Counted from the stretch's first letter, positions 1,285-61,775 are shown. The stretch: DNA of 64,000 nt from Polyangia bacterium (GCA_050287845.1 JBNKCR010000129.1:7364-71363), one strand, 5' to 3'. The notes: generated by a model not told the origin, from the sequence alone. Made by a program: numbers and translations.

Positions 1285-1323
1285 AATGTGCGATGTTCAG
1301 CTTGGATGCTGCGTGTCTATTTT

Positions 1324-2229
1324 ATGAATATCATTACAAGAAATCCATTTCTGTTTTTACTGGTGGGCATCGTGTTCATCAGTTTCTCACCGGTGCTGGT
1401 GCTGGTTTCGGGAACAACTGCGTTGAAGGCCGGATTGTACCGACATCTGTTTGGACTCCTGTTTCTGTTGCCCTTTGTGCTGTCCAGAAAGGTGCGCTGG
1501 TACCACGGAAAATGGACGGTGCTGTTACCCGTGATGGCAGGAGTACTTTTTTTTGTGGATTTATGGAGCTGGCATATCGCCATTGGCCTCATTGGTCCTG
1601 GGTTGTCCACCCTGATTGGGAATTTTCAGGTATTTTTTGTCACGCTGATAGGGGTTGCCTTTCTCAGGGAAAGGCCGCCTGTGCGATTTTATCTGTCGAT
1701 TCCATTGGCGCTGACCGGTGTGTATTTTATTGGCAATTCAGCGGATGGCGTCGGCTCGCCGCAACTCACAGGCATGGCTCTTTGCCTGCTGGCCGCGCTC
1801 TGTTATGCCTTCTTTCTGATTATCAATCGAAAATCGCAAACGCTGTCCAAAAAAATCAGTGCGGAAATGAATCTGCTGTACATGACCCTTTGCGCTGGAA
1901 CACTGTTTGCGTTGGCCGTTGGCGCATCGGGGGAATCGTATGCGCTTCCGGATACCCGGGCTTTTGCAGCGTTGTTCGCCTATGGGCTCTTTCCGCATTT
2001 TATCGGCTGGATCATTATCATCCGGTGTCTGCCACTGGTAAATGCCACCGTTGCCGGAATGACGTTGCTGTTGCAGCCTGTGCTGACATTTGTGTGGGAG
2101 GTATTGCTGCTCGGAAGGCAGTTTGAGCCGTTACAGCTGTTCGGTGGTGCGCTGGCCATTGCAGCGATATATCTGGGAACCATGAAATCAGAGTCGGCGC
2201 ATTCCGACAGCGGGAATTCGCCGCTCTAG
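1324..2229 (+). CDS. DMT-superfamily (EamA-like) transporter
   Basis: About 300 aa, roughly ten hydrophobic helices in two halves, typical of EamA/RhaT drug-metabolite transporters. Start chosen at MNIITRNPF; ORF opens at 1288. Confidence 0.75.
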   Translation: MNIITRNPFLFLLVGIVFISFSPVLVLVSGTTALKAGLYRHLFGLLFLLPFVLSRKVRWYHGKWTVLLPVMAGVLFFVDLWSWHIAIGLIGPGLSTLIGNFQVFFVTLIGVAFLRERPPVRFYLSIPLALTGVYFIGNSADGVGSPQLTGMALCLLAALCYAFFLIINRKSQTLSKKISAEMNLLYMTLCAGTLFALAVGASGESYALPDTRAFAALFAYGLFPHFIGWIIIIRCLPLVNATVAGMTLLLQPVLTFVWEVLLLGRQFEPLQLFGGALAIAAIYLGTMKSESAHSDSGNSPL

Positions 2230-2290
2230 CCCCACAACTCTATAAAAATCACCAATCGACCGAATCTGGCGTGTGTCTTCGCAACTCAAT

Positions 2291-10165: not shown

Positions 10166-11380
10166 ATGTATTCTTCAACAATTAAGCCGAATCATCAGGA
10201 TCTGATGGGAGAAGGCAAGCAGTGGAGCGGTGGCATCGGTGCATTTGAAACCGTTCAGGCCGGGATTATTCCCTGCAGGAAGTCGGGTACCAACGGAACA
10301 GAAACGGTTTCATCCAACTGCTGGACAATCTGTTTTACCGCGGATTGGGTGGTGGTGGTGATGTGCGCGGGGGATTCTCAGATGCCACTCTCCTATGTGG
10401 CCGCGAATCGGGCGGAAAATATCGGGATGTCGGTACTGCAGTATGTGGATGTCCAGGGTGCTGCGGACACAATGGATAAACATCTGGATTCATATCTCGC
10501 CCCCGATGGCATTCTGGCGATGGATGTCATCAAGCTGGCCAAAGATGAAATACAGAAATTGGCCTCGATTTCGGAAACCAGATTCAAGGGCGCATTTCAC
10601 GGTGAACTGTACAATCTGCATAAAACGGGGCTGTCCATGGCCATTGGCGTGGTGTGTATAGACCGGTCCAGTCGCGACGCAGTGCTGTGGAAGTGTGGCA
10701 ATATCGACATCCTGTATAAGTATGGTGTCGATTATCTGTTGCAGGCGGCGTTTGAGGAGGATTCAACAGTCTGGTCCAGTAAAACCGGGTTGACGGCGTC
10801 TGCCCAGCTGTTGAAGTGCCAGGGAGTGGCGCAAATCAGCATGCGCAGCGCCGGCGCCAGGGACATGGCCTGTGCCATTTCGGAAACCAGCCTGCCGGAC
10901 TCGGAGTTCCAGCTCATTCGCACCGAGGAGGATGCCGCCTGGGTAACATGGTGTGCGACATCGGCGCCGGAAGAATTGGTGGAAATCACCAGCCAGCAAT
11001 TTGAGCACGGAAGGGAATTCACCGAAAGCATCCGGCTGGCCGAGGAAAGTGGCCATGGATTCTTTTATCTGGGCAACAGATTCTTTTCCATAGAAAATAT
11101 AGAATCAATATTCAGTGAAGGGGCTGTGGCCAGCGAGACCATGGGGCTCTGTCTGGCCAACTGTTCCCTGATAGACGATGGGTGTATTGCGCTGTTAAGC
11201 AATCTCAGATATGTGCGGTATCTGGATTTACGACACACATCCATAACCCCTGCCAGTCTCACATACCTGCAGAAATTCAAGAATCTGACATTTCTCGATT
11301 TAACTGAAACCCAAATTCGCGCCAGCCATCTTTCGGGGTTGGACTTTCCCGAAGGTATGCGGTTGAGAATCGACATCTGA
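10166..11380 (+). CDS. hypothetical protein with C-terminal leucine-rich-repeat-like segment
   Basis: 404-aa ORF; C-terminus LSNLRYVRYLDLRHTSITPASLTYLQKFKNLTFLDLTETQI has LRR periodicity. Confidence 0.5.
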   Translation: MYSSTIKPNHQDLMGEGKQWSGGIGAFETVQAGIIPCRKSGTNGTETVSSNCWTICFTADWVVVVMCAGDSQMPLSYVAANRAENIGMSVLQYVDVQGAADTMDKHLDSYLAPDGILAMDVIKLAKDEIQKLASISETRFKGAFHGELYNLHKTGLSMAIGVVCIDRSSRDAVLWKCGNIDILYKYGVDYLLQAAFEEDSTVWSSKTGLTASAQLLKCQGVAQISMRSAGARDMACAISETSLPDSEFQLIRTEEDAAWVTWCATSAPEELVEITSQQFEHGREFTESIRLAEESGHGFFYLGNRFFSIENIESIFSEGAVASETMGLCLANCSLIDDGCIALLSNLRYVRYLDLRHTSITPASLTYLQKFKNLTFLDLTETQIRASHLSGLDFPEGMRLRIDI

Positions 11381-21594: not shown

Positions 21595-22917
21595 CTAATC
21601 CCAATTGGCCGACTTCGTATCCCATGCGGGATCAGAACAATAGGGGCAACTGTCGCCTACCAGCATTCCTTTTCCGGCGTCGCTTTCATCCCCTTTGAGG
21701 GTCCATTTGAGCCATGCCAGAATAATTTTCGTGAAATCGCCGCTCCCGCCCTGGCCCAGGTCGCCACCGTGTCCGATGTCCTTGCTGAAATACATAATCG
21801 GATTTTCAAGCTTGCTGATGGCATCGTAGTCGCGAAGTCCATTTTCGTAGGCCATATCACTGGGGCCGCCCTGCACAAACAGCACTGGCGTGTGAACGGT
21901 CTGATAAAAGGCATTGTCGGCCGCGAACATGCCGCTGCTGGTCAGCCCCCAGTTTGTCATCCGGGGATCACCTGCGGTGCCTTCGGCCATTAATCCACCG
22001 CAGGAGAAACCGTTGGCTGAGATTTTTGTGGGGTCAAGCTTGTGATAGTAGGGACTGCAGGGTTTGTGATTCTGCTCAATCGCCCAATCAATATATCTGA
22101 TTAGCGGTGCGCCCATTGCAGTCATGTCTCCGGTATCCATGCTGCGATTGCTGGCGTCGCCAGGGGTGCCATCCGCTACAACGAAAAATCCGTAGGAGGC
22201 AATTTCACCCATTGCTGCGGAGTTGGACCCGCCGTTTCGGGAACAAGCACCCTCACCCCATACAAATATGGGGAACCGTTCCTGGGCGTCCAGGTCGGCG
22301 GGACGGTAAATGGTGCCCTCGTTGATGCCGGAATCCGGATTTGTCTCTACCACCACATCATATGGACCGCTTCCGCTGGCGTTTATGCTGCTGACTTTCT
22401 GTGAATCTGTGCAGCTTCCATCAATATCCGGGCCGTCCACGTCACCGTCCGAATCTGTATCGGTGTCGGTGTCTGTATCGGTGTCGGTGTCGGTGTCTGT
22501 GTCTGTGTCGGTATCTGTATCGGTATCAGACTCCGGAATGGTCGCGCCTTCGCAACAGCGCAGCTCTCCTTCGCAGACGCCATTTCTTGCGGTGCCGTCC
22601 CACGAAACGCAGTGGGCCAGACATTCGTATGCGCAGATATCATCTGCATCGGAGTCCGTGTCTGTGTCTGTGTCGGAATCCGTGTCGGTGTCAGTGTCCG
22701 AATCTGTGTCGGTATCGGTATCCGAATCGGTATCAGTATCGGTATCCGAATCTGTGTCGGTATCGGTATCGGTATCCGAATCGGCGTCGCTGTCCGAATC
22801 AGAGTCGTCGGACGAGGAATCGTCTCCGGTGGTGTCCACTCCGCATGTCGGAAATGCGGTACATGCGAAAATCAGCAAAAATGCATACAGTACCATTTTT
22901 ATATTTTTTAACTTCAT
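21595..22917 (-). CDS. secreted alpha/beta-hydrolase esterase with Asp-Thr/Asp-Ser repeat linker
   Basis: Start chosen at MKLKNIKMVLYAFLLIFAC (signal peptide; ORF opens at 22977). Two acidic repeat tracts separated by a six-Cys segment, then a catalytic domain with nucleophile elbow GFSCGG. Confidence 0.75.
   Translation of the reverse strand: MKLKNIKMVLYAFLLIFACTAFPTCGVDTTGDDSSSDDSDSDSDADSDTDTDTDTDSDTDTDTDSDTDTDTDSDTDTDTDSDTDTDTDSDADDICAYECLAHCVSWDGTARNGVCEGELRCCEGATIPESDTDTDTDTDTDTDTDTDTDTDTDTDSDGDVDGPDIDGSCTDSQKVSSINASGSGPYDVVVETNPDSGINEGTIYRPADLDAQERFPIFVWGEGACSRNGGSNSAAMGEIASYGFFVVADGTPGDASNRSMDTGDMTAMGAPLIRYIDWAIEQNHKPCSPYYHKLDPTKISANGFSCGGLMAEGTAGDPRMTNWGLTSSGMFAADNAFYQTVHTPVLFVQGGPSDMAYENGLRDYDAISKLENPIMYFSKDIGHGGDLGQGGSGDFTKIILAWLKWTLKGDESDAGKGMLVGDSCPYCSDPAWDTKSANWD
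22425..22821 (-). repeat. coding hexanucleotide microsatellite (GAY-ACN/AGY)n encoding (D-T/D-S)n
   Basis: Runs of gtatcggtgtcggtgtctgt-type units on the plus strand (about 22440-22520 and 22640-22800), inside esterase codons 53-185. Confidence 0.8.
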
Positions 22918-23317
22918 TATATTGGTTCCTTTCAATTTGTTTTCAGGTCCCGGTTCCATTCGGGGCGAATACTCCATAAAAAATCACAGAATTTTCAGAG
23001 TTCCAGTATCCCGACAGCAAGTGAACAGCGCAGGAATAGTGACATTATTTATGCAAAATGCTGTTTTTCGGAAACGCGACGACTGCGTCGAAAAACATTC
23101 CACGCTGGTTGGTTTCAGTCTGATTGTCGCGTCGGATGCGGATTCGGAGCATATTGACTCCATGCGGATTGTCTAATAAGGAACCCATGAGAAACTGGGC
23201 TTCTGAGCATCTTTTTTTGTAAAGACATCTCAGGGGAAAATGGTAGGATGCCGTTTTTCTGAAAATCAGAAAATCACAATGTATGAACATTCGCAAACTG
23301 GAACATAGGCAACCTGC

Positions 23318-25612: not shown

Positions 25613-25805
25613 AACAATTTGTTGATTTTTTTTGAAACAGTTTGTTACACCGGTGGGCAGATGAGTTATATCCGTAACTGAAATGAATCACTGTGACGCT
25701 GGGGGTACGGTGTGATGGCAGCGGCTTCCTGATTTGGCGATGTATATGCACGCGAGATAACCGAATCGTCGCATGTATTGTGCACAGGGAAGGATAATAA
25801 CCGCC

Positions 25806-27194
25806 ATGCATATTCCTGAAGAACTTTTTGAACTGGTGTTTCAGAGCATCAGCGAAGGGGTTTTCACTGTCGATGAAAATTTTCGAATTACCGCATTCAA
25901 CAGCGCTGCGGAGAAAATTACCGGAATTCCGGCGGAAATGGCCGTGGGACGAAAATGTCACGAAGTGTTTCGGGCCAATATCTGTCAGAACCGCTGTGCC
26001 CTGAAACATACCCTTCAAACGGGAAATCCCCGGTCGGATGTGCGGGTGGATGTACTGGATGCCAATATGGACCCCATTCCCATTGAAGTGTCCACTGCCG
26101 TTCTTCGCGATACGGACGGACGGATGATAGGCGGCGTGGAAATCTTTCGGGATATCAGTGAAATTGAACTGCTGCGGGGCGAGCTGGGGCAGCGGCACGA
26201 GTTTTCCCGCATCATTGGTGCCAGCCCTGCCATTCAGTCTGTCCTGTCGGTGGTGCCACAGGTGGCGCAGTCTGATGCGGCCGTGCTCATCCAGGGGCAG
26301 AGCGGCACCGGGAAGGAACTGGTTGCCGGTGCCATCCACGAACTGTCACGCCGCCGTGACAAGGCGCTTGTCAGAGTCAATTGTGCGGCATTGCCGGATA
26401 CGCTTCTGGAATCAGAACTTTTCGGATATATGAAAGGCGCATTTACCGGGGCGGTGGCGGACAAACCGGGCCGGTTTGCGCAGGCCGATGGGGGGACGCT
26501 GTTTCTGGACGAAATTGGAGACATATCACCGGCGTTTCAGGTAAAGCTGCTCCGCGTGCTCGAAGAAGGGGAGTTTCAACCTCTGGGCAGCACGCGAACC
26601 ATCACCGTTGATGTGCGATTGATTTGCGCCACAAATCTGGATTTGGCGCAGATGGTCCGCGATGGTACTTTCCGGGAAGATCTGTATTACCGGATTCGGG
26701 TGGTACCGTTGCATATGCCTTCCCTGGCAGAGCGCCGACAGGACATCCCCATGCTCATCGACCATTTCGTGAAACTGATTTCGGCCAGAATGGGTAGACG
26801 GCCGCCAGGGTTCAGTCCCCGTACCATGCGACTTTTATATGAATATCATTATCCTGGAAATGTACGTGAACTGCGAAACATTCTGGAGCGCGTTCTGGTG
26901 CTCTGCAACCAGGACGTGGTGGAACCACCGTGTTTGCCCCCGGAAATATACATGCCCCGTCATTTCGAATCCGCTTCGGTTGTCCCTGGGGAAGAGGCGG
27001 AACCGGGTAGATTGGCCGCCAATAACGATTCCCTTCGGAGAAGTGTTTCGCCGCCTTACCTGGCCGGAGATGAAGCGGCGACCTTGAAGCAGGCGCTGGC
27101 AGCTGCTTCCTGGAATCGGAATCTGGCGGCAAAACGCCTTGGAATCAGTCGTACTACACTCTGGCGCCGTATGAGAAAATACGGCCTCGAATAA
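25806..27194 (+). CDS. sigma-54-dependent transcriptional activator with N-terminal PAS domain
   Basis: PAS-like N-terminus; AAA+ sigma-54 interaction domain with Walker [15 protein letters not shown] motif, arginine finger region; C-terminal Fis-type HTH ([24 protein letters not shown]). ORF opens at 25773. Confidence 0.85.
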
Positions 27195-41394: not shown

Positions 41395-42747
41395 ATGACT
41401 ATGGATAAATTTTTTGAAACACTCAGTAGAGAAGTCAGGGAGAACGATGCCATTTCGAATGATATGTTCAAGAAGTTCAATGTCAAACGGGGGCTGCGCA
41501 ACGAAGATGGCAGTGGCGTGCTGGTGGGTCTTACGGAAATCTCAAGTGTTATGGGGTATACGAAATACGACGAGGAAGTAGTTCCTGTTGAAGGCCGTCT
41601 GTTCTATCGGGGATTCGATGTGAAAGACCTTGTTACCCTCGATGTCGAGCTTCAGGCGAAGCATTCTCTTTTCGAAGAAACGGCATATCTTCTTCTGGCG
41701 GGCAAACTTCCAGATCAGAAGGAACTTGCGTATTTCCGTCAATTGCTGGCATCCAATCGCAGATTGCCGAAAAATTTTGTGCGGGATCAGCTCTCCACAT
41801 TCCGGACGCCTGATATTATGAACGCACTGGCACGTTCGGTGCTCACTCTGTATATGTCGGATTCAAACCCGGACGACACAGCTCTTGACAATCTGCTTCG
41901 GCAGTCGGTGGAGCTGATTGCCAAAGTGCCATCCATTGTGGCCTATGCGTATCGGGTGTATCTGGAAGCTTTCAAACAGCAGAGTCTGATTATTCACAAA
42001 TCGAATCCGGAATACACCACCGCGGAGAACTTCCTGCATCTGATTCGAGATAACGGTCAGTTCACCGATACCGAAGCCCGGGTTCTCGATACGGCCCTGG
42101 TGCTGCATGCCGACCACGGTGGCGGAAACAACTCCACGTTTGCCGCGCGGGTTGTCACGTCCAGTGGCACGGACACCTACTCGGCCATCGCCGCAGCGCT
42201 TGGTTCGTTGAAAGGGCCTCTGCATGGTGGCGCCAATCTCTACGTGATGAAAATGATGGACAGTATTAAAGCCGATGTATCGGACTGGAATGACAACGAG
42301 CAGCTGCGCAGTTACATCCTGAAAATATTGAATGGAGAGGTGGGGAACGGCTCCGGAAAGGTTTATGGATTCGGGCATGCCGTGTATACCCTGAGCGATC
42401 CCAGAGCCAAAATCCTTAAACAATACGCTGAACAACTGGCCAATGAGAAAAATCGAACCGAGGAATTTGCGCTGTATGCCAAGTTGGAAGAAATTGTCCC
42501 CGAGGCATTTGCCGAGTTTAAGGGCGGCGGGAAAGTGGTGGCTCCGAACGTGGATTTCTACAGCGGATTTGTGTACGACTGCATGGGGATTCCAAGGGAA
42601 GTATATACCCCTCTGTTTGCCATGGCGCGCGTCGCAGGCTGGGTGTCCCATCGCATAGAGGAAATACTGGTTCAGCGGCGCATCATGCGTCCCGCTTACA
42701 AAAACGTCACGACCATCCGAACTCATACGCCGCTCAATAAACGATAG
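41395..42747 (+). CDS. citrate synthase (or 2-methylcitrate synthase)
   Basis: 450 aa; signature GFGHAVY and HADHGGGNNSTF active-site region; ADHEG-type catalytic His context. Confidence 0.85.
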   Translation: MTMDKFFETLSREVRENDAISNDMFKKFNVKRGLRNEDGSGVLVGLTEISSVMGYTKYDEEVVPVEGRLFYRGFDVKDLVTLDVELQAKHSLFEETAYLLLAGKLPDQKELAYFRQLLASNRRLPKNFVRDQLSTFRTPDIMNALARSVLTLYMSDSNPDDTALDNLLRQSVELIAKVPSIVAYAYRVYLEAFKQQSLIIHKSNPEYTTAENFLHLIRDNGQFTDTEARVLDTALVLHADHGGGNNSTFAARVVTSSGTDTYSAIAAALGSLKGPLHGGANLYVMKMMDSIKADVSDWNDNEQLRSYILKILNGEVGNGSGKVYGFGHAVYTLSDPRAKILKQYAEQLANEKNRTEEFALYAKLEEIVPEAFAEFKGGGKVVAPNVDFYSGFVYDCMGIPREVYTPLFAMARVAGWVSHRIEEILVQRRIMRPAYKNVTTIRTHTPLNKR

Positions 42748-43144
42748 ACTCAATCAATTCAGAATCCGCTCGTCTGGCCCGGTTTGGGGCGTCACAATCA
42801 TCGGTTCACTTTCTGTTGAAAAAATAGCGGCAACGTACAATCAGGTTTCTGCATACTCCATGCAGCAGTTTTCGGATAACTTTCCCGTGAATTGCCACCT
42901 GCATTCAGCTTTCGCACACCCTGTAAAAAGCACAGTGCACGATACAGATAGTCTGGGCTTCAATTGTAAAACACTTTTTTTAATTTGCAGGCCCATCCGG
43001 AGTGTGACTGGCATTTCCTGTGCAATGAACACGAACATACTCTTTGCCGGCGAGGAAACCGGGATGCGTTCCGTTTTTGCAGCGCGTCTCAAACAAACAC
43101 TTTTACATTTCCTTAACTATGGGGAAAGACCAGGAGAAAGAATT

Positions 43145-43807
43145 ATGAAAAGAAGAAGTATTTTTGCATTGGTATTGTCGACGATTCTGTCATTTTCAGC
43201 ATTGGCTTCTGCACAGGAAATTATTCCGTCGTTTCAACTTCGTCTCGACAATGAAATTTATCCCATGACTCAGAGTGACCCACAAAGTGAGCCACAGACA
43301 TGGACCGCCGTGTTTTATCTGAACGAGGAGGAAGCTGAGCGAAATGAAGGGGTTCAGGCCAATATTGACTTCCAGATTGGGGATTTGACAGGGGGCACCA
43401 GCTGGTCCTATTGCTACTATCTGGAGGAGAATGTTTCCGTTCCCGAAACCGGACTGATTACAGAGAAAGGTGATATCAATCAGGTGCCTTTCCGCCTGTC
43501 TGCGGACGACCAGATTCCGGGCCGGTACAAAGCAGTACTTAACGCCAGTAGCGGTGCCATCGATTTCACATATCTGGATGAAGGCACCCTGGGAGACGTG
43601 AACCTTGATGGGGTTGTGGATATCGTAGATTCGCTGCTGATTTCTCAGGACTACGTCCACACCCCCATTACCTCTACCTACGAAACGGATCTTGCGGATG
43701 TTAATTGTGATGGAAGCGTGAATGTCGTTGATTCATTGCTGATTGCCCAGGCGTACGTTCAGGTTCAAAGCGCCATCGACACAATCGCGGAATGTGCCGC
43801 CAACTGA
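43145..43807 (+). CDS. secreted protein with C-terminal dockerin-type tandem repeat
   Basis: Start at MKRRSIFALVLSTILSFSALASA (signal peptide, GGAGAAAG RBS upstream; ORF opens at 42860). C-terminus has two Ca-binding-loop-like repeats, DVNLDGVVDIVDSLLISQDYV and DVNCDGSVNVVDSLLIAQAYV. Confidence 0.7.
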   Translation: MKRRSIFALVLSTILSFSALASAQEIIPSFQLRLDNEIYPMTQSDPQSEPQTWTAVFYLNEEEAERNEGVQANIDFQIGDLTGGTSWSYCYYLEENVSVPETGLITEKGDINQVPFRLSADDQIPGRYKAVLNASSGAIDFTYLDEGTLGDVNLDGVVDIVDSLLISQDYVHTPITSTYETDLADVNCDGSVNVVDSLLIAQAYVQVQSAIDTIAECAAN

Positions 43808-44002
43808 AGCGCTGACCACTTAACTCTCCATTTTGATTCGCCTGACCCCGTTTTCTCAATACAATTGAAGCTGACGTTATCAGATGCAGAAATGCGCAGT
43901 CAGTGCCACCAAACAAAATCATTCCGAGCGTATGTGTTGGGGCACTGATGGGAGCAAAGGTGTGGGCGTTCCCACAGCGCATGACGAGGGAAAAAATGGG
44001 GG

Positions 44003-45199
44003 TCAGAACTGGGAGAAAAACGCCCATGTATCAGCGGGAACCCAGGAAGACGCGCCTCCCGGCGTTGGTGTGTTGCCACCGACGAAGATGCAGGCCCGTA
44101 CGGGGTACCCCTGTTGGCAACCTTCGAAATCAACGCACTCCGGTGTATTACCGCTACTATCAGTGGGGTCGGGCATGGCCTCGGCAAATGCATCCCGGCC
44201 CATGCCCGGGTCCGGCGCTATGCACCCGTTTGTCTTCGCAAAATCCTGCAGCGGTGGTACGCCGTACCCCGGATATTTGCAGACACTGTCGTTGATGCCA
44301 TGGGTCATATAATAGGCAACGGGACTGCTGTGCTGCTCGCAGCCACTCATTGGGCCCCCGGAATGAGCCGCAACCGCGCGAATCACATCCCCCATGGCGC
44401 AGGCCATGGCATAGGACATGGAACCGCCCATACTGAAACCCTCGCAGAAAATGCGCGATTTATCGATGCAAAGTTCGTCCTCCATTTTTGAGATCAGCTG
44501 ACGGGAAAATTCGACATCATCCCCATTGCGGTTCCACCAGGCATTGTTCAGCCCCTGGGGGGCGACAAAAATCGTACTCCCCTCGGCCAGATTCCATAGA
44601 CCATAATAGGAGCCCTGACTGACCCAATCCGACGTTTCGCCCATCGAATGATACGCCATCATTAAACGATATGGTTTATTGTTGTCGTAATCATCCGGAA
44701 TCTTGAGGTTGTATGAGCGGCTTGAGCCCGAGACATCTATGGATAGTCCGTTTCCACTCGAAAGCGTCGATGTTTTCCCGCAGCCGGCGCTTTTGTCGGG
44801 ATCACCATCTGTATCGGTATCCGTGTCGGTAACCATTTCCGTTTCCGTTTCCGTTTCCGTTTCCGTTTCCGTTTCCGTTTCCGTGTCCGTGTCGGTATCG
44901 GTATCGGTATCGGTGTCTGAACCCGTGTCGGAATCCGAATCAGAGTCTGAATCCGTGTCGGAGTCTGAATCCGTGTCGGAGTCGGAATCCGTGTCGGAGT
45001 CGGTATCCGAATCTGTATCTGTATCTGTATCGGAATTGGTATCGGTAGCTGTATCGGTATCCGAATTTGAATCGGCATCACTGCTGTTGATGTCACTAGT
45101 CTTATCTTGATTGACTAGTTCTGTATCGACGCACGTTGCCAGGGCAAATGAGATAATCATCAGAAAAAACAGATGTTTCCAGTCAGATATGCAATCCAT
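44003..45199 (-). CDS. secreted esterase (PHB-depolymerase / feruloyl-esterase-like alpha/beta hydrolase) with Asp-Thr/Asp-Ser/Glu-Thr repeat linker
   Basis: Start at MDCISDWKHLFFLMIISFALATC (signal peptide; ORF opens at 45298); about 100-aa acidic repeat tract; catalytic domain with GFSMGGSMSYAMACAMGD nucleophile elbow and several Cys. Confidence 0.75.
   Translation of the reverse strand: MDCISDWKHLFFLMIISFALATCVDTELVNQDKTSDINSSDADSNSDTDTATDTNSDTDTDTDSDTDSDTDSDSDTDSDSDTDSDSDSDSDTGSDTDTDTDTDTDTETETETETETETETEMVTDTDTDTDGDPDKSAGCGKTSTLSSGNGLSIDVSGSSRSYNLKIPDDYDNNKPYRLMMAYHSMGETSDWVSQGSYYGLWNLAEGSTIFVAPQGLNNAWWNRNGDDVEFSRQLISKMEDELCIDKSRIFCEGFSMGGSMSYAMACAMGDVIRAVAAHSGGPMSGCEQHSSPVAYYMTHGINDSVCKYPGYGVPPLQDFAKTNGCIAPDPGMGRDAFAEAMPDPTDSSGNTPECVDFEGCQQGYPVRACIFVGGNTPTPGGASSWVPADTWAFFSQF
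44797..45094 (-). repeat. coding hexanucleotide microsatellite encoding (D-T/D-S/E-T)n
   Basis: Runs of gtatcggtatcggtgtc and gtttccgtttccgtttcc units on the plus strand inside the esterase gene. Confidence 0.8.
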
Positions 45200-45378
45200 A
45201 AAAAGTCTCCCTTCTTCGGTAAACCCTCTAACCGCAACAGAACTTCGCTGCGGTGATGTATTCTCCCGCTGTCTCGGTAGGTTGCCGTGCCAATACAAAG
45301 TGTTGAGGAGAAGGAGAAATGGGTTGGGATATCTGAACTATCGGCGGATGTCAAGATAGTTGTCGCATGAGTGTTGCA

Positions 45379-46224
45379 TCATGCGGCCTCCTTAATTGAG
45401 ACTTTTGCCGGATTGAGGGACACCGTTTCTACCGGGATCCAGTTTCGTGTTTTTCCAGTCCAACGGTTTGGTTCTTTTTGTTTTGCACTCTCATAAACCA
45501 AATGTCGTTGACGCAAAATTTCTTTATCATCACCATTATGGCGCGCCTCGGGGGTAACGAAGCGGATGCCGCTGTGTAAGTGTTTTGTATTGTACCAAAT
45601 CACAAATTTCTCCATCCAGCGCCTTGCTGAATCGATGGATTCAAACGGCTTGTGAGGGTATTCTGGTCTGTACTTTAATGTTCTGAAGATTGACTCGGAA
45701 TAGGGGTTATTATCGCTTACTCCCGGGCGACTGAAAGATGCCATCACGCCAGGCTGGTCAAGTGTCGCAAGCATTGTGGCGCCTTTCATCGGGCCGCCGT
45801 TGTCTGAATGCAAAGAAAGCTGATTTGCATCTACACCATTGGCGTCAATAATCTGGACAATCATGGCAGATGAAATTTCCATACACTCACGGTCGTGAAT
45901 TTCCCATCCAATAATCTTTCTGCTCCAAACGGCCAGCACAAGATACGGATAATAAAACGTTCCTCTGACCGCTGCAGGCAAGTACGAAATATCCCAACTC
46001 CACACCTGATTGGGGCCCGTTGCCAAAAGTTCATCGGGTCGATTGTGCGTTGCGGGTTTTGAGGATTCTCGATGTTGCTGTTGTCCCTCCTCACGAAGAA
46101 TCCGATACATGGGAGACTCGGATGCCACGTACACGCCGCTATCAGCCAACCTGGGTACAATTTGATAGTTCCCTTGAAGGGTTGACCGATACGCCCAAAG
46201 AAGCGCTGACAATGGGCATCGCAT
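45379..46224 (-). mobile_element. IS3-family transposase remnant (OrfB integrase-core part only; OrfA and the 5-prime part missing)
   Basis: Integrase-core (rve) signature PNQVWSWDISYLP...YYPYLVLAVWSRKIIGWEI and the DDE region; no HTH OrfA frame upstream; transposase-like similarity starts only about 30 codons into the ORF. Confidence 0.7.
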
Positions 46225-53999: not shown

Positions 54000-54222
54000 C
54001 GCCACGGGCAGGACGGTGCGACGCTTCCCCGGTGCGCCGGGATGTGAAGCCCACCGCATCGCCGGTCTGTCGCCTAAACAACGAGACGGCCTTTCGTAAT
54101 ATTATTAATTTAGCAATTATTTGTTTTCGGTAAGTACAGAAAATACGTGTAGTTTTTGGTTCGCGCAGTGGTATAAACCTTTGGAACGGATAAAAAATGA
54201 TTTTCGCAACCCCGGACCAGAT

Positions 54223-55851
54223 ATGACATTGATCCGTTTTTTATTGAGTGCGTCCCTGAAAATGACGCTGCTCACCATATTCGTGGCACTGCTCAGCGGC
54301 GCATTCAGCGGCGCCGTTGTGGCTGTGGTGCATCGGACGATTGAATCAGACCGTGAACTGACGCTGCTGCTGGGTATCGCATTTGTTCTGGCGGCGACCG
54401 GTAAACTGATTACCGGATATTTCAGTGAAGTCATGCTCACCAGAAGAGCGCAGACCGCCGTCGCCGCGTTGCGTCTGGACCTGGTTCGCAAACTGCAGCG
54501 GGTGCCGTTCAAGCGCTTTGAGGAGTTGGGACAGGCGAGGATTCTCACCACCTTCACCGACGATGTGGCGTCAGTAAGCCAGGGGCTGTACCAGCTGCCG
54601 GCATTCACCATCAACGTTGCGGTGTCTCTGGGCGGGGCGCTGTACCTGGTATATCTGTCGTGGCAGACACTGTTTCTCCTCGGCGGGCTGTCGCTCATTG
54701 GCGCCCTGGTGTATCGCTTCATGCTGAGACGTGCATGGCGGGTGTATGGCCTGGCGCGCGATGAGCGGGATCGACTGAACAATCACCTCGTTACATTGAC
54801 CCGGGGTATGAAGGAACTCAAACTGCACCGACCGCGACGTCATGCCTATACCGAAGTTGAGCTCCAACACAGCACCGACAGGCTCATGGAACTGGATGTC
54901 AAATCCCACTCGCGGTATATTCTGGCCCACAGCACCACCCATTTTTTTCTGATGGTCCTCATCGGACTGATTGTATTTGTCTCGCCCCAGCTCCTGCATA
55001 TTTCCGAAACCACGGTGACCGGATATGTGTTGATTGCACTTTTTCTGATGGGACCCCTGAGCGGGATTGCCGGCACCATGCCGGTATTCAGCCGGGCCGG
55101 GGTGGCTGTGGATCGCATCCGCAAACTGGGGATTTCATTCGATTCCGGCAAGCAGGAAAAAGCGGTGGTCACTGCAGAGGACGCCGCGTCGTTTATGGAA
55201 ATATCGCTGAATGAGGCCACATGTGTCTATGAAAGGGAAGGGGACGCCCCCTTTACCCTTGGACCGGTGAACCTGAAATTCGGTCCGGGCGAATTGATTT
55301 TTATTACCGGCGGAAATGGAAGTGGCAAGTCTACCCTCGCGAAGTTACTCACCGGTCTGTATGCACCCGGGGACGGTCAGATTCTGTGGAATGGCACACC
55401 GGTGACTGACGAAAATCGGGATGATTACCGGCAGCTGTATACCACGGTGTTTTCAGATTTCTTTTTATTTGAATCGCTGCTGGGACTGGATTCCCCCAAT
55501 CTGGACACCCGGGCGCAGAGCCATTTGAAAAATCTGGGACTCGATAAAAAAGTGCGCATTGAACATGGCGCATTGTCAACGGTGAATCTTTCAACCGGAC
55601 AACGAAAGCGGCTGGCATTGCTGACCGCATATCTTGAAAATCGACCAATCTATGTGTTTGACGAGTGGGCAGCGGACCAGGACCCGTCGTTCAGAAAAGT
55701 GTTTTATGAAGAACTGATTCACGATTTGAAAGCAGAGGGCAAAACAATCCTCGTGATTACGCATGATGACAGATATTTTCACCTGGCGGACCGACATTTT
55801 GAAATGAGGGACGGGCAGATGGCAGAACGGGACAGACAAAAAAAGGAATAG
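54223..55851 (+). CDS. cyclic-peptide/siderophore-type ABC exporter (fused permease-ATPase)
   Basis: Start at MTLIRFLL (ORF opens at 54121); N-terminal six-helix permease; C-terminal ATPase with Walker A GGNGSGKST, signature LSTGQRKRLALL, Walker B IYVFDEW. Confidence 0.8.
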   Translation: MTLIRFLLSASLKMTLLTIFVALLSGAFSGAVVAVVHRTIESDRELTLLLGIAFVLAATGKLITGYFSEVMLTRRAQTAVAALRLDLVRKLQRVPFKRFEELGQARILTTFTDDVASVSQGLYQLPAFTINVAVSLGGALYLVYLSWQTLFLLGGLSLIGALVYRFMLRRAWRVYGLARDERDRLNNHLVTLTRGMKELKLHRPRRHAYTEVELQHSTDRLMELDVKSHSRYILAHSTTHFFLMVLIGLIVFVSPQLLHISETTVTGYVLIALFLMGPLSGIAGTMPVFSRAGVAVDRIRKLGISFDSGKQEKAVVTAEDAASFMEISLNEATCVYEREGDAPFTLGPVNLKFGPGELIFITGGNGSGKSTLAKLLTGLYAPGDGQILWNGTPVTDENRDDYRQLYTTVFSDFFLFESLLGLDSPNLDTRAQSHLKNLGLDKKVRIEHGALSTVNLSTGQRKRLALLTAYLENRPIYVFDEWAADQDPSFRKVFYEELIHDLKAEGKTILVITHDDRYFHLADRHFEMRDGQMAERDRQKKE

Positions 55852-55859
55852 TATTTTTT

Positions 55860-58800
55860 ATGTTGGCATATGGAATAGATACCATCAACGAAGCTTTAAA
55901 ACGAAATGCAGAGCAGTATGGCGACGACATTGCGTTCCGATTCATCCAGGGCGGTACAGATGAAAAGAGTATCACCTACGCCGAACTGTATTCGAGAGCG
56001 CTGCAGATAGCTTCGCAGTTTCGATTGGCAGAAATCCCGTTACAGTCGAAGGTATTGATTCTGTATCCGTCCTCCCTTGAATACATCTGCACGCTGTTCG
56101 GTTGTTTTCTGGCGGGGACAACCGCGATACCGGCGTATCCACCGGTGTTCAACCGGTCACTCTCCGCCCTGCGGAATATCGTTCTCGATTCCGGAGCAAC
56201 CATCGCCTGTGTGGAATCGGCGATTCGGGAGCAGTTGCAACCGTTGCTTCACACGGAGTCCTGGCTCGAAAATCTGAACTGGATGACCCCGGAAGAAGAT
56301 GTTGACGACGCCGTCGATACGAGCGCCCTGCCAGATGTGGCGCCGGAAGACCTGGCCGTTCTGCAATACACGTCCGGTTCCACCAGTGCCCCCAAAGGCG
56401 TGATGTTGTCCCATCGAAATCTGGTGGCCAATGCCCATATGCTCATGGCGCGTGTGCAGGCGACCGCCCGGGTAGACAGAATGGTCGCCTGGCTGCCCCC
56501 GTTTCACGATATGGGTCTCATCGGGAGTATTCTGGCGCCGGTATGCGCCCGGGTGGAATCCACCCTGATGCCCCCCAGTTCGTTTATCAAAAAGCCCCTT
56601 CGCTGGCTGGAAGCGATTTCCAGATATCGGGGAACCATCACTGCGGCGCCGGATTTCGCGTACGAGATGTGTGTGCATCGCACCCCTCCGAAGCAGCGGG
56701 AACTGGTGGATCTCTCCAGCCTGCGCGTGGCCCTGAACGGGGCGGAGAAGGTTCGCGAAGACACGCTGAACCTGTTCTGTGATGCGTTTAAATCGCAGGG
56801 ATTCTCAATGTCGGCATTTGCGCCGTCCTACGGGTTGGCGGAAGCGACACTGGGGGTTGCCATCAAACGGAATGGCAATACGCCGCTTGCCCGCCGATTT
56901 GATACGGAGAAACTGAAGGAAGGGTTGGCGGTCCCGGTCGGCGGCGATGACGGCACATCCCTGGTCACCTGCGGCAAGCCCCTCGATGGCGTGGATGTGA
57001 AAATTGTTTCCATTGAAACGCGGCAAGTCGTTACACCCGGGATGATTGGCGAAATTTGGGTGCGCAGCGCCAGCGTGTCCAGGGGATACTGGCAGAAAAT
57101 CGAGTTGAGTCGTGAGATTTTTGAAGGAACGCTGCCTTCGGATGGCAGACCGGATGAGAAGTATCTGGCCACCGGTGATTTGGGATTCCTGTATGACAAT
57201 GAATTGTATGTGACCGGCCGCCACAAGGATCTGATCATTGTGCTGGGGGTCAATCATTATCCGGAAGACATCGAGAAAACAGTTGAATCCGCCCATCCCG
57301 CCATCCGGCAACATACTGTCATTGCGTTTGCGCTGCCGATAAACGGGACCGAGCGCGTGGTGGTGACCACTGAGATTGCCCGGGGCAATGAATTCGCCCT
57401 CGACGACATCATTGGTGCCATCCGCAATGCCATCAGCACCCGACATCAGTTGCCGGTGTACGATATTGTGCTGCTTCCCCAGGGAGGACAGGTGGCCAGG
57501 ACCACCAGCGGGAAGCCACGGCGCAGCGCGTCCCGGCAGAAGTACGAAGCCAACGGGTTTACGCCGCTGGGAAGCAGTCAGATGCAGCAGGGGACAGAAT
57601 CGGGTTCTCCGGCGGAAGAAATTGCAGTGGTCCAGCGGGTCATGGCGGAAGTGCTTTCGGTGGACCGGGTTTCAGCAGACGACGACTTCTTTGCCCTGGG
57701 CGGACATTCGCTCATCGCCACCCAGCTGGCCTCCCGGTTGGCATCTCTCTGGGAAAGAGAGGTGCCCGTGCGGGTGATATTCGAGCGGCCGACGGCTGCC
57801 CGGCTGGCGGGGGTGCGGCACTCGCTGCCGGTGACCGGAAAACGGAATCAGATACAGAAGGTGGACCGAAGCGGTCCGCTGGTGCTTTCCCACTCTCAGG
57901 AGCGAATGTGGCTGTTGCACCAGCTGGAACCGGATGGCACGGCATACAATGTTTCCGGTGCGGTAGTGGTGGATGGTCCGTTCAACGTGGTCCATTGCCA
58001 GACGGCGATGCAGCGCCTGGTTGACCGCCATGAAACCCTGCGAACCACTTTCCCTTCCGAAGGCGGTACGGTTTCTCCCATGATTCACTCCAATGTGAAA
58101 ATCAACGTTGTTTGTGAAGACCTGTCGAGCGCCGATGACCCGCTGGAACAGGCCGCACGCAAGGGGTCGCTGCTGGCCCACAGGCCGTTTGATCTGGCGA
58201 GGGATTTGCTGATACGGGTTGCCATATTCAAAGTTGCCGACGTTCGGCATGCCATTGTCATTTCGATGCATCATGTCATCTCCGATGCATGGTCTCTGGG
58301 CGTGGTGCTCAAAGAAATCATGGAAGACTACCTGGCATTGAACCGGGGCGAAGTTCCGACTTCGGTGGTGCCGGACATTCAGTATGTGGATTACGCGGCC
58401 TGGTTCCGGCCCGTCGTGGAAAGTGAACGGTTCAATGATGAACTGTCGTATTGGCGGAACCGACTGCAGGGCACACCGAATCTTGAACTGCCCACCGATC
58501 GGTCCCCGGGTTCGAATGTGAGTTCAGCAGGGGAAATGGAACGACTGCAAATTTCGGAAACCCTGCGCAATGAAATTGAGGATTTGGCCCATCAACATGG
58601 CGCCACGCCATTCATGGTGATGCTGCTGGCCTTTGAAACCCTGTTGTACCGGTACAGCCGGCAAACGGATTTTGCCATCGGGGTGCCCATTGCCAACCGC
58701 AATCATCATCAGTCCGAACATCTGGTTGGCACCCTGGTCAATACCCTGGCTTTCCGCGCGAATCTGAATCCAAAGGAGGCATTCAGTGCGCAACTGGAAC

Positions 58801-61775
58801 GCATCCGGGAAGACTGCCTCGATGCGTATGCCCATCAGCAGTTGCCGTTTGAGCGGCTGGTGCAGGAACTGCATCTCGAACGGCGAGCGGGACAGACGCC
58901 CCTGGTGCAGGTGATGTTTGACTACGCCAATCCGCCCATGCCAAAGGCCCGGACCGACGAATTTTCGCTATCGCCCCTGTTCATTTCGAGACGGGCTGCC
59001 CAGTTTGATTTGAGTCTGCTCACCCTGGATTCCGAAATCGGATTCGTGACAGCGATGGAATATAGGAGCGATTTATTCGATGCGTCCACCGTGCGGCGCA
59101 TGCTGGACCATTACCTGCGTATTCTGAAATTGGCGGTCACCAATCCCACTCAGCGTCTTTGTGACATGGCGTTTCTTTCTCAGGATGAAATCCGGGAAAT
59201 CGTTGCTCTCGGCGCCAGCACAAATATGAAACCGGTTTCATCGGATACCACGGTCGCGCGCATTGTGGCTGGTGCCGATGGGGTGACAGGTAAAATGGCG
59301 GTGACAGATGAAGTCGATGGGATCACGTACGGCAGGTTGATGGAACTGACTCGTACGGCTGCCGCAAAGATGGCTGCGGCCAACGTGGCAGCGGGAAGCC
59401 GGGTGGCAGTATGTCTGGAACGGTCACGGCTGATGCCGGCGGCACTGCTGGCGGTGCACTGGCTGGATGCGGCGTACGTACCCATCGACCCGCATTTCCC
59501 GGCTGAACGGGTGAGATACATGCTGTCGGAGACCACGCCCGCGGTGGTGGTCTGCGATGAGGCCACCACCGCCGCGTATCCGGAGTTGGCGCAATACCCG
59601 TGTCTGCGGATTGAAGACGTGGTACAGAGCGAGCCCCTCACGCCACCACCTCTGACCACCCGACCCGATTCCACGGCGTATATTATTTTTACTTCCGGCT
59701 CCACGGGAAAACCAAAAGGAGTGGAGATTCCCCAGCGCGCCATGCTGAACTTTCTGGAGTCCATGGCCCATACACCGGGAATGACTGCCACCGATCGCCT
59801 GCTGTCCGTCACCACCATATCGTTTGACATTTCAGTGCTCGAAATCTTTTTACCGCTGCTCTGTCAGGCCGAAGTGAAGATTGTCGGCAGCGATACGGCA
59901 TTGAACGCCCAGAAACTGCGGGGAATACTGGAAGAGACTGATGTCACCGTGATGCAGGCCACGCCGGTCACCTGGCGGATGCTCATTGAATCCGGATGGG
60001 CAGGCAGCGATTTGTTGACGGTACTCTGCGGCGGTGAAGCAATGCCCGCTGATCTGGCGGAACAGTTGGTTACTCGCAGTAAAGCCCTGTGGAATATGTA
60101 TGGGCCTACGGAAACCACCGTGTGGTCCACGGTTCAGCAAATCAGAACAAAGGAAGCCATTGATATTGGCCGGTCCATTGATCGGACCGCAGTGTATATT
60201 CTGGATGCCACAAAACAGCTTTGTCCCATTGGTGTCACTGGCGAAATCTATATCGGCGGCGCCGGCGTGGCCAAAGGATATTTCAAGCGTCCGGAACTCA
60301 CGCAGGAGCGATTTGTCAAAGACCCCTTTACCCCCGGATTCGGCGATCGCATGTATGGTACCGGCGATCTTGGACGCATGCGATCGGATGGCACATTCGA
60401 ATGTTTCGGTCGTCTGGATCATCAGGTGAAAATTCGTGGATACCGCATTGAGCTGGGTGAAATTGAAGTTGCGCTGAAACAATTGCCCGAAGTGGCGGAT
60501 GCGGTGGTCATTCCCTGGGAGGTAACCCCCGGGGATGCGCGTCTTTCCGCCTATATTATCGCAGAAGGGACGGCGCCAGAGAGCGAGCAACTGCGAAATG
60601 TACTTCGAAAATCGCTGCCGGGATACATGGTGCCCAGCTGGTTCACGGTGATGGCCCAGTTCCCCACCACGCCCAACGGTAAAATTGACCGCAAGGCACT
60701 GCCTGGCCCCGATGCGAAACTGGAAGTGCAGAGCCCGCTGAGAGTCGCCCCGCGGAGTGAGACAGAGAAAGCGCTGGCCGTCCTGTGGGCCCGGACCCTG
60801 GATGTGACCCATCCGAGTATTACCGACAACTTCTTCGATGTGGGACACTCGCTGCTGGCTGCCCGGTTGTTCGGGCAAATCGAAAAAGAGATGGGGGTTT
60901 CGCTCCCCCTGTCGGTGCTGTTTTCGCATCCCACCATTGAGATGCTGTCCGCATACATCGACGGACAGGTCGATGAACTGGGGTATTACGAACTGAAATA
61001 TGTGGTGCCCATCAAACCCCGGGGGCGCGCCACGCCGGTGTTCTGTATCCACGGCGCCGGGGGGAACGTGCTCAATTTTGAGTCCCTCGCAAGGCATATC
61101 GACGCGGATTGTCCACTGTATGCCATCCAGGCCCGTGGGGTGCATGGCACGGAAACGCCCTTTGACACCATTGAAAAGACGGCGTCGGCCTATCTGGAAG
61201 AAGTCATGGAGATTCAACCGACCGGTCCATACATTATCATGGGATACTGCGCCGGTGGGGTTGTGGCATTTGAAATGGCCAGGCAGATTCAGTTGAAAGG
61301 TGACATGGTGCGGGATTTGATTCTGATAGATACGTTCCGTCCCGGGGTTGGCTATACCATTCCCTCATTCGGCAAACGGGTGCTTCGCGCGGCGACCAAA
61401 GGTCCGGGGCATTTCTTCCGACACAGTTTCTCCAGGCTGCATCGAATTAAAGAGGACAACGCCAATCTGAAGGCGCTGAACAGGCACCTGAGCGCCGGCG
61501 AGCCGGTGCCCCACGAACTGAGGACCCTTTGGCTGACCCGGGCGTTTCTGGACTCCGTTGAAAAGTACCAGCTGCCGGTGTACGATGGGGCACTCACCAT
61601 CTTTGAAGCGGCGGATGTTCCTTCGGATCTGGTGTGCAGTGAGCCCAATCTGGGATGGGATGGATACGCTGCGTCCATCAGTTGCACCAAAGTGCCGGGA
61701 GGCCACCTCACCCTCACCGACGAACCCAACGCAAAAGTCCTGGCCACCGAACTCTGCAACCGCCTCCACCGCTGA
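55860..61775 (+). CDS. non-ribosomal peptide synthetase, FAAL - carrier - C - A - carrier - TE (single amino-acid module with lipid-loading domain)
   Basis: 1971 aa. FAAL-like domain aa 1-565 (TSGSTSAPKGV). Carrier GGHSL (Ser617). C domain HHVISDAWS (aa 804-812). A domain core motifs FTSGSTGKPKGV, FDIS, NMYGPTE, GEIYIGGAGVAKGY, YGTGDL, GRLDHQVKIRGYRIELGEIE, LPGYMVP, PNGKIDRKAL. Second carrier FFDVGHSL (Ser1664). TE with IHGAGGN and GYCAG. Confidence 0.9.
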   Translation: MLAYGIDTINEALKRNAEQYGDDIAFRFIQGGTDEKSITYAELYSRALQIASQFRLAEIPLQSKVLILYPSSLEYICTLFGCFLAGTTAIPAYPPVFNRSLSALRNIVLDSGATIACVESAIREQLQPLLHTESWLENLNWMTPEEDVDDAVDTSALPDVAPEDLAVLQYTSGSTSAPKGVMLSHRNLVANAHMLMARVQATARVDRMVAWLPPFHDMGLIGSILAPVCARVESTLMPPSSFIKKPLRWLEAISRYRGTITAAPDFAYEMCVHRTPPKQRELVDLSSLRVALNGAEKVREDTLNLFCDAFKSQGFSMSAFAPSYGLAEATLGVAIKRNGNTPLARRFDTEKLKEGLAVPVGGDDGTSLVTCGKPLDGVDVKIVSIETRQVVTPGMIGEIWVRSASVSRGYWQKIELSREIFEGTLPSDGRPDEKYLATGDLGFLYDNELYVTGRHKDLIIVLGVNHYPEDIEKTVESAHPAIRQHTVIAFALPINGTERVVVTTEIARGNEFALDDIIGAIRNAISTRHQLPVYDIVLLPQGGQVARTTSGKPRRSASRQKYEANGFTPLGSSQMQQGTESGSPAEEIAVVQRVMAEVLSVDRVSADDDFFALGGHSLIATQLASRLASLWEREVPVRVIFERPTAARLAGVRHSLPVTGKRNQIQKVDRSGPLVLSHSQERMWLLHQLEPDGTAYNVSGAVVVDGPFNVVHCQTAMQRLVDRHETLRTTFPSEGGTVSPMIHSNVKINVVCEDLSSADDPLEQAARKGSLLAHRPFDLARDLLIRVAIFKVADVRHAIVISMHHVISDAWSLGVVLKEIMEDYLALNRGEVPTSVVPDIQYVDYAAWFRPVVESERFNDELSYWRNRLQGTPNLELPTDRSPGSNVSSAGEMERLQISETLRNEIEDLAHQHGATPFMVMLLAFETLLYRYSRQTDFAIGVPIANRNHHQSEHLVGTLVNTLAFRANLNPKEAFSAQLERIREDCLDAYAHQQLPFERLVQELHLERRAGQTPLVQVMFDYANPPMPKARTDEFSLSPLFISRRAAQFDLSLLTLDSEIGFVTAMEYRSDLFDASTVRRMLDHYLRILKLAVTNPTQRLCDMAFLSQDEIREIVALGASTNMKPVSSDTTVARIVAGADGVTGKMAVTDEVDGITYGRLMELTRTAAAKMAAANVAAGSRVAVCLERSRLMPAALLAVHWLDAAYVPIDPHFPAERVRYMLSETTPAVVVCDEATTAAYPELAQYPCLRIEDVVQSEPLTPPPLTTRPDSTAYIIFTSGSTGKPKGVEIPQRAMLNFLESMAHTPGMTATDRLLSVTTISFDISVLEIFLPLLCQAEVKIVGSDTALNAQKLRGILEETDVTVMQATPVTWRMLIESGWAGSDLLTVLCGGEAMPADLAEQLVTRSKALWNMYGPTETTVWSTVQQIRTKEAIDIGRSIDRTAVYILDATKQLCPIGVTGEIYIGGAGVAKGYFKRPELTQERFVKDPFTPGFGDRMYGTGDLGRMRSDGTFECFGRLDHQVKIRGYRIELGEIEVALKQLPEVADAVVIPWEVTPGDARLSAYIIAEGTAPESEQLRNVLRKSLPGYMVPSWFTVMAQFPTTPNGKIDRKALPGPDAKLEVQSPLRVAPRSETEKALAVLWARTLDVTHPSITDNFFDVGHSLLAARLFGQIEKEMGVSLPLSVLFSHPTIEMLSAYIDGQVDELGYYELKYVVPIKPRGRATPVFCIHGAGGNVLNFESLARHIDADCPLYAIQARGVHGTETPFDTIEKTASAYLEEVMEIQPTGPYIIMGYCAGGVVAFEMARQIQLKGDMVRDLILIDTFRPGVGYTIPSFGKRVLRAATKGPGHFFRHSFSRLHRIKEDNANLKALNRHLSAGEPVPHELRTLWLTRAFLDSVEKYQLPVYDGALTIFEAADVPSDLVCSEPNLGWDGYAASISCTKVPGGHLTLTDEPNAKVLATELCNRLHR

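Follow-up and report, generated by a model that had tools for sequence, protein, structure and literature searches.

A small exported protein with a dockerin, a head of predicted X25-like fold and a probable sigma-54 promoter in an anaerobic myxobacterial lineage

The gene, its upstream region and its neighbours

The gene described here lies in a window (the whole stretch of 64,000 nucleotides that was analysed) and encodes a rare, exported, non-catalytic and acidic protein of two modules, from an uncultured lineage of anaerobic myxobacteria. An N-terminal domain, called here the head, follows the signal peptide, and a dockerin with a C-terminal extension closes the protein (Table 1); with the signal peptide removed, the computed mature product has 197 aa, a mass of 21.6 kDa and a pI of 4.05. 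Six full-length relatives were found for the 220-aa protein, giving a family of seven members with the window protein included, and in public databases the relatives already carry the PF00404 tag. Three orthologous loci, L003, L001 and L014, encode proteins that are respectively 87%, 50% and 37% identical to the window protein. Against the 87%-identical ortholog, dN/dS is 0.13 overall, 0.12 in the head and 0.10 in the dockerin: both domains are under purifying selection, and the gene is real and constrained. An ORF on the opposite strand, 43196..43660 (-), was set aside as spurious, since the Pfam match and the dN/dS of 0.13 belong to the plus-strand frame.

Table 1. Position of the gene, of its upstream elements and of the parts of its product, counted from the first nucleotide of the window
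Feature	Position	Strand	Remarks
Sigma-54 -24/-12 element TGGCATTTCCTGTGCA (probable)	43009..43024	+	GG 43010-43011, GC 43022-43023; 136 nt 5' of ATG
Shine-Dalgarno AGGAG	43132..43136	+	8 nt 5' of ATG, read from sequence
Coding sequence	43145..43807	+	ATG, 220 codons and stop; intact ORF
Sec (type I) signal peptide, aa 1-23	43145..43213	+	predicted cleavage between ASA and QE, by inspection
N-domain (head), aa 24-148	43214..43588	+	lineage-restricted beta-sandwich, predicted X25-like (SusE/SusF/Sca5-type) fold; putative glycan-binding module
Dockerin module, aa 149-205	43589..43759	+	two 21-residue Ca-loop and helix segments, 13-residue linker
Segment 1 DVNLDGVVDIVDSLLISQDYV, aa 151-171	43595..43657	+	verbatim as first quoted
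Segment 2 DVNCDGSVNVVDSLLIAQAYV, aa 185-205	43697..43759	+	verbatim as first quoted
Cys188	43706..43708	+	position 4 of Ca loop 2 (DVNCDG)
C-terminal extension helix, aa 206-220	43760..43804	+	carries Cys217
Cys217	43793..43795	+	in C-terminal helix

Concerning the start codon, the GGAGAA block at the Shine-Dalgarno site is also kept in L003 and L001 when the upstream regions are aligned, and a start of the form MK(R/K) is common to five of the six full-length relatives, the sixth, P0001, being called from an upstream ATG. In the window an alternative ATG at 42860 also opens a longer frame. The public call of P0001 (JGI, 99% identical, 260 aa) begins 40 codons upstream, with MNTNILFAGE..., and, given the other five relatives and the Shine-Dalgarno site, is probably mis-annotated; the ATG that it uses lies just 3' of the -24/-12 motif, close to where transcription would be expected to start. 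By inspection, the signal peptide, MKRRSIFALVLSTILSFSALASA followed by QE, has a KRR n-region, a hydrophobic core and an AxA site and has no lipobox Cys, a layout kept across all relatives in the alignment. As the host is presumably a diderm, a type I signal peptide alone places the protein only as far as the periplasm.

Exact occurrences of TGGCAY-N6-TGCW in the window are two against 0.84 expected, a number that alone is not significant. An exact occurrence is nevertheless found upstream of the start at all four loci, at 136 nt in the window, 137 in L003, 146 in L001 and 139 in L014, and the alignment of the first three shows a block CTGGCAT...TGCAATG kept amid diverged DNA. In L001 both the upstream neighbour gene and the flanking DNA differ from those of the window, and still the motif is retained. 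The element has the GG/GC spacing of TGGCAC-N5-TTGCW, is intergenic, is oriented with the gene and is conserved. From this pattern of conservation we consider a sigma-54 promoter very probable for this gene; it would require an enhancer-binding activator and would hence make expression dependent on a signal.

No promoter-like site was found on the plus strand in a sigma-70 scan, a search for inverted repeats upstream gave nothing convincing, and Rfam returned nothing at E<=1 for 42700..44050. The terminator scan gave one weak hairpin with a T-run in the leader, 43060..43073, at chance level. The predicted leader itself, 43041..43078, contains a hairpin CCGG-N8-CCGG followed by this weak stem and T-run (TTTTTG), kept in L003 and not in L001. 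Upstream of the sigma-54 element we also observed by eye a palindrome, CTGCAT-N5-ATGCAG, at 42849..42865, and a second block containing CTGCAT, TGCCACCTGCAT, at 42888..42900, both partly kept in L003 and L001; these CTGCAT blocks may be a binding site for the activator or a chance resemblance. A gene for an enhancer-binding protein with PAS, sigma-54 AAA+ and Fis-HTH domains, 25773..27194 (+), encodes a candidate activator for sigma-54 promoters of the region; nothing ties it to the dockerin gene, and a homolog lies at the left end of L003.

Wherever a locus extends far enough to tell, the dockerin gene is located 3' of genes for a UvrD-like helicase and a citrate synthase, and its slot between citrate synthase and 2-oxoacid:ferredoxin oxidoreductase is kept even in L001, where the protein is only 50% identical. 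Downstream, L001 and the window share the order 2-oxoacid:ferredoxin oxidoreductase, three rubrerythrins, HDOD and OmpA. Into this frame the window inserts an esterase, 44003..45298 (-), and an IS-type transposase, 45379..46224 (-), with an rve integrase core (Pfam rve, 50.4 bits); L003 inserts a GH2-like lipoprotein and the same esterase; L001 has instead a VIT/TPR protein upstream, and the esterase is absent from the corresponding position. Since the inserts differ among loci, adjacency to hydrolases is variable while the housekeeping frame is conserved, and since the dockerin and oxidoreductase genes are directly adjacent in L001, the esterase and the transposase of the window represent a local insertion or rearrangement. 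The original prediction placed the gene beside secreted hydrolases, and this holds for one flank, where the convergent esterase lies, the other flank being occupied by citrate synthase. A tRNA scan of the window found none, and thus no sign of an integration site.

Housekeeping proteins of the window are 65-92% identical to those of L001, which is contig JAFGWT010000387 of a MAG from Zodletone spring labelled 'Deltaproteobacteria bacterium'. JAFGWT is among six anaerobic Myxococcota MAGs, five of which fall in the novel order JAFGXQ01 of the class Polyangia; the Zodletone Myxococcota are characterised as non-social organisms that ferment or reduce nitrite and that are rich in CAZymes for the degradation of polysaccharides (bioRxiv 10.1101/2021.07.06.451402). 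The window probably derives from a related, uncultured myxobacterium that is also anaerobic. Elsewhere in the window we noted a GH63/MGH1-like glycoside hydrolase, 7053..9797 (+), and a small biosynthetic locus of lipopeptide type, 54121..61775 (+), which is absent at the corresponding position of L001. In it the gene of an ABC transporter precedes that of an NRPS-like protein of 1971 aa, in which two AMP-binding regions, a condensation domain, two carrier domains and a thioesterase were recognised.

The dockerin module and its cysteine pair

Two C-terminal segments of about 22 residues had been read as fitting the type-I dockerin pattern. Both are present verbatim, with canonical Ca loops and helices, and the Pfam Dockerin_1 profile (PF00404) matches aa 149-201 over profile positions 1-53 of 57 with 38.1 bits (E 1.7e-9), well above its gathering cut-off of 22.9 bits; the relatives score 42-50 bits. 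The Ca ligands at loop positions 1, 3, 5, 9 and 12 are D151, N153, D155, D159 and D162 in the first loop and D185, N187, D189, N193 and D196 in the second, so that all ten positions hold a canonical Asp or Asn, and the structure model predicts helices at aa 160-168 and 194-204. Among PDB sequences, phmmer matched at least 20 dockerins (best 2y3n_B, E 5e-5), and the predicted fold resembles that of solved dockerins in three-dimensional comparison. Together these results establish a genuine dockerin with duplicated segments at the C-terminus; its Ca2+-dependent folding and its docking to a cohesin are putative, by analogy with known dockerins. When all six frames of the 64 kb window were scanned for the Ca-loop pattern, it occurred only in these two loops and in one unrelated match within a TD-repeat linker.

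The two segments share 15 of 21 amino acids and only 44 of 63 nucleotides, which points to an old internal duplication held at the protein level and not to a recent DNA repeat. They are nearly symmetric, with I-V and V-V at positions 10/11 and S-Q and A-Q at positions 17/18, an arrangement associated in dockerins with a dual binding mode. Type I dockerins of C. (Acetivibrio) thermocellum, such as those of Xyn10B (2ccl_B, 1ohz_B) and Cel48S (1daq), also consist of two 22-residue segments with 12-residue Ca loops and helices, and show the same kind of near-internal symmetry tied to dual binding. The predicted backbone of the window dockerin lies within 1.3-1.4 A of theirs, at an identity of only 24-31%. 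It differs from them in its hydrophobic residues at positions 10/11, where the C. thermocellum dockerins have a Ser-Thr pair, in a conserved Cys at position 4 of the second loop and in an extra C-terminal helix with a second Cys.

This fourth helix, aa 208-219, is predicted with pLDDT above 90, and Cys188 and Cys217 are invariant in all seven family members. To the family we added nine dockerin-only matches, mostly proteins of Spirochaetales MAGs, and two ORFs of the Spirochaetales locus L006. Among the 15 dockerins so compared, both cysteines are present in 12 and neither in two; in the remaining one the C-terminal Cys pairs instead with a Cys just before loop 1. Co-variation of this kind argues for a disulfide clasp, and we infer that Cys188 and Cys217 probably form a bond that holds the C-terminal helix against Ca loop 2. 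It should be noted, however, that an exposed disulfide may not persist in the habitats of the relatives, which are sulfidic and strongly reducing. Dockerins of Ruminococcus flavefaciens (ScaH 8ajy_D; ScaA, PMC3821032) have extra structural elements or an intramolecular clasp; the clasp proposed here would differ in being covalent, from Cys to Cys, between Ca loop 2 and the C-terminal helix. In a non-exhaustive search of the literature we found no report of a covalent Cys-Cys clasp in bacterial dockerins. A compact dockerin of this type (about 72 aa) might find practical use as a stabilised tag for docking.

The head domain

The N-terminal region had been estimated at about 200 residues and described as devoid of recognisable catalytic motifs. 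The first figure is too high, for the region before the dockerin has 148 aa including the 23-aa signal peptide, leaving about 125 aa in the mature protein; the second statement is borne out, as searches of Pfam, NCBIfam and PDB assigned the region to no catalytic family. Indeed the head, aa 24-148, has no sequence match of any kind in these three collections: Pfam at E<=0.1 gives only the dockerin, and AliD, at E 0.39, is all that a head profile retrieves from PDB sequences. A head profile built from six sequences retrieved only two genuine clusters among 1.84 billion cluster representatives. Eleven other matches, to long repeat proteins (Big_9/cadherin-like, ankyrin, low complexity), were treated as noise because they sum weak stretches and because hhalign gives a probability of 11% for the head against the best Big_9 protein. 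With the family alignment, the GTDB species representatives yielded one full-length relative (the JAFGWT01 MAG) and the JGI metagenome contigs none, all other matches in these genome and metagenome scans being to the dockerin only. From these searches the head appears to be close to an orphan domain, confined to a narrow clade of uncultured anaerobic Myxococcota.

Structure prediction of the N-terminal domain, suggested with the original prediction, was carried out with AlphaFold2, and the head was modelled as a seven-strand beta-sandwich from the full-length protein and from the head alone alike. Confidence in this model is moderate (mean pLDDT about 66 from an alignment of 6-7 sequences, with aa 79-109 below 50). 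The modelled domain is a beta-sandwich of about 120 residues with X25 topology, and its nearest folds, the SusE/SusF/Sca5 set, are X25 modules, themselves beta-sandwiches of about 120 aa (PMC9112005). Identity to X25-type structures in the structural alignments is 8-14%, and neither Pfam at E<=0.1 nor the head profile against PDB detects sequence homology to the X25 family. As modelled, then, the head is closest in fold to the X25 starch-binding modules, a resemblance at the level of fold, and with it the X25-like binding modules would gain a very divergent branch.

Aromatic residues are conserved in the family alignment at W52/Y, W85/Y, F57, F116 and Y128, and an aromatic-rich stretch, SWSYCYY, sits in the unmodelled loop of the head. 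By analogy with X25 modules, the head may bind a polysaccharide. Starch is doubtful as its ligand, since the Zodletone Myxococcota are not enriched in GH13 amylases compared with their soil relatives (bioRxiv 10.1101/2021.07.06.451402).

A beta-sandwich of roughly cohesin size, with no other obvious partner nearby, also raises the question of self-assembly: the head could be a divergent cohesin into which another copy inserts its dockerin, so that chains or oligomers form. We hold this to be very unlikely. No Pfam Cohesin match is obtained for the head at E<=0.1, the profile search of PDB sequences returned no cohesin, and the model has seven strands against the nine of the cohesin jelly roll. 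A kinship of the head with the N-domains of about 125 aa of three Spirochaetales dockerin proteins (P0008, P0013 and P0015) was also considered and rejected, at an hhalign probability of 0.4%; searches of PDB and Pfam with those N-domains gave no cohesin and no other match.

Docking partners and possible role

The Pfam Cohesin profile matched none of the 31 window ORFs scanned, in agreement with the original prediction that no cohesin partner lies in the window, and none of the genes called in L001 and L003. Likewise, the window together with the related Myxococcota loci, some 100 kb, gave no second dockerin: there is one dockerin-bearing family member per locus in every relative, and the DNA sampled does not hold several dockerin-bearing enzymes. 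The roughly 100 kb of lineage DNA sampled for cohesins and dockerins are a small fraction of a multi-megabase genome. Three secreted hydrolases are encoded nearby (the esterase, an alpha/beta hydrolase at 21595..22977 and the GH2-like enzyme of L003), all without dockerin. With a single dockerin and dockerin-less hydrolases, nothing indicates a multi-enzyme docking system or a cellulosome, and the functional link of the gene to its neighbouring hydrolases is weak, the esterase being moreover missing in L001. A dockerin next to a secreted esterase might suggest a catalytic subunit of the cellulosome type, docked together with the neighbouring hydrolases. Given a head of about 125 aa with no match to a catalytic family (Pfam, NCBIfam, PDB), neighbours that have no dockerin and an adjacency that is not kept in L001, this can be regarded as extremely improbable.

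These three hydrolases, the esterase 44003..45298 (-), the alpha/beta hydrolase 21595..22977 (-) and L003 10728..13427 (-), have (T/S)D dipeptide linkers of about 100 aa between an N-terminal signal or lipoprotein-like sequence and the catalytic domain, and the linkers yield spurious MSCRAMM/Sdr matches. The esterase is PHB-depolymerase/CE1-like (NF050058, 68.5 bits, below its cut-off), the alpha/beta hydrolase is family-less with a Cys-rich insert within the linker, and L003 10728..13427 (-) is a GH2-like enzyme.

It had also been supposed that dockerins imply a cohesin partner. That step is unsafe: in the summary of Peer et al. 2009 given in PMC9012536, cohesin and dockerin modules are widespread in bacteria and archaea that make no cellulosome, with implications that are unclear. 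The window dockerin could be an orphan with no cohesin receptor, a module that confers stability or solubility in a Ca2+-dependent way or that addresses a target other than a cohesin (an envelope polysaccharide or another protein family), in a free periplasmic or secreted binding protein. That the roughly 100 kb sampled gave one dockerin and not a single cohesin, with a single dockerin-bearing family member per locus in all relatives, agrees with this explanation, as does the spread of such modules outside cellulosome producers according to that summary. Like the non-cellulosomal dockerins, as far as they are described there, the window protein has no known cellulosome in its organism and no scaffoldin in view; compared with the dockerin-like modules in the same description, it has fully canonical Ca loops, strong symmetric conservation and a subtype that is carried by CAZymes. 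Several points speak against an orphan. The segments are nearly symmetric and their helix faces (positions 10, 11, 17 and 18) are kept under strong purifying selection, which is what a maintained binding surface would show; the same subtype is joined to CAZymes in other taxa, and about 100 kb is a small part of a multi-megabase genome. We consider the orphan explanation, the strongest of the alternatives, rather unlikely on the whole. If it is true, the protein shows once more that a dockerin HMM match by itself is no predictor of a cohesin system, which calls for caution in the annotation of metagenomes.

The reading that we tentatively prefer, judging it a little short of probable, is that of a non-catalytic glycan-binding adaptor similar to Sas20, with an X25-like head, plugged in by its dockerin and controlled by sigma-54. 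The Sec pathway would export the small acidic protein across the inner membrane, the dockerin would fold on binding Ca2+ and would slot into a cohesin-like receptor, carried either by the cell envelope or by some other exported protein, and the head would then hold the polymer; the final location could be the periplasm, the surface or the medium. Transcription from the sigma-54 promoter would make all this dependent on an activator and on a signal. If docking is true, dockerin-based assembly reaches beyond the Gram-positive degraders of fibre and starch, into myxobacteria living on polysaccharides and under signal-dependent sigma-54 control. In the window, two large proteins with hardly any family assignment, one of 404 aa, 10166..11380 (+), with a weak LRR match and one of 945 aa, 14337..17177 (-), with a marginal phosphodiesterase match, are candidate envelope partners if they are exported.

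In Sas20 of Ruminococcus bromii the signal peptide is followed by starch-binding domains, and the dockerin at the C-terminus docks to a Sca5 cohesin (PMC9112005). The window protein has the same order of signal peptide, non-catalytic binding module (putative here) and C-terminal dockerin, and domain 2 of Sas20 consists of X25 modules, the fold class nearest to the head, although no sequence similarity between the head and X25 is detectable. Several differences separate the two proteins. Sas20 has 657 aa and two large domains, against 220 aa and one small head; its host belongs to the Firmicutes and not to the Myxococcota, presumed diderms; its dockerin has a defined cohesin, while for the window protein no cohesin and no other dockerin proteins were seen in the DNA sampled; and it binds starch, a doubtful ligand here. 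The putative Cys-clasped C-terminal helix and the probable sigma-54 promoter further set the window protein apart. Dockerins outside cellulosome producers were already known, and Sas20 is a precedent for a binding module combined with a dockerin; new are the near-orphan head of predicted X25-like fold, the subtype with its probable Cys clasp, the conserved promoter motif of sigma-54 type and the host lineage.

The Cys-pair subtype of dockerin is also found in Spirochaetales MAGs, on a GH11-like xylanase (L006) and on a CE4 deacetylase (P0009), from which it follows that the subtype is used on carbohydrate-active proteins. Spirochaetes could harbour an undescribed dockerin-based system; no cohesin was identified in L006, the one Spirochaetales locus searched. 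A wider form of the preferred reading is that a sigma-54-controlled cohesin-dockerin system exists in anaerobic, non-social Myxococcota, that its Cys-clasped subtype is shared with Spirochaetales, probably by horizontal transfer, and that the protein is a glycan adaptor which could dock onto the scaffold of other species. Taken as a whole we hold it unlikely; if true, surface assemblies comparable to the amylosome and the cellulosome extend to a diderm phylum and to communities of sulfidic springs.

Another explanation is adhesion or docking between cells or across species, in which an Ig-like head would make protein-protein contacts and the dockerin would act as a tether, possibly onto receptors of co-resident Spirochaetales. 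The window dockerin is as similar to Spirochaetales dockerins (45-54%) as it is to those of its own distant orthologs (54-59%), and, judging from isolate names, its closest dockerin matches and the closest named relative of the family both stem from MAGs of Zodletone spring. The head profile gives weak, repeat-summed matches to giant Big_9/cadherin-like adhesins, and for ANME consortia a role of dockerin-cohesin systems in the interaction between cells has been proposed (PMC9012536). However, hhalign at 11% reduces the likeness of the head to Big_9 to the level of motifs, and L006 showed no Spirochaetales cohesin; this explanation appears quite unlikely to us.

Cys-pair dockerins were observed in P0007-P0009, P0012, P0013 and P0015, some of them from Zodletone spring. 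In L006 the GH11-like xylanase, 768..1673 (+), adjoins a 558-aa protein with an N-terminal dockerin, 1924..3600 (+), and several small Spirochaetales proteins combine a family-less N-domain of about 125-150 aa with a dockerin.
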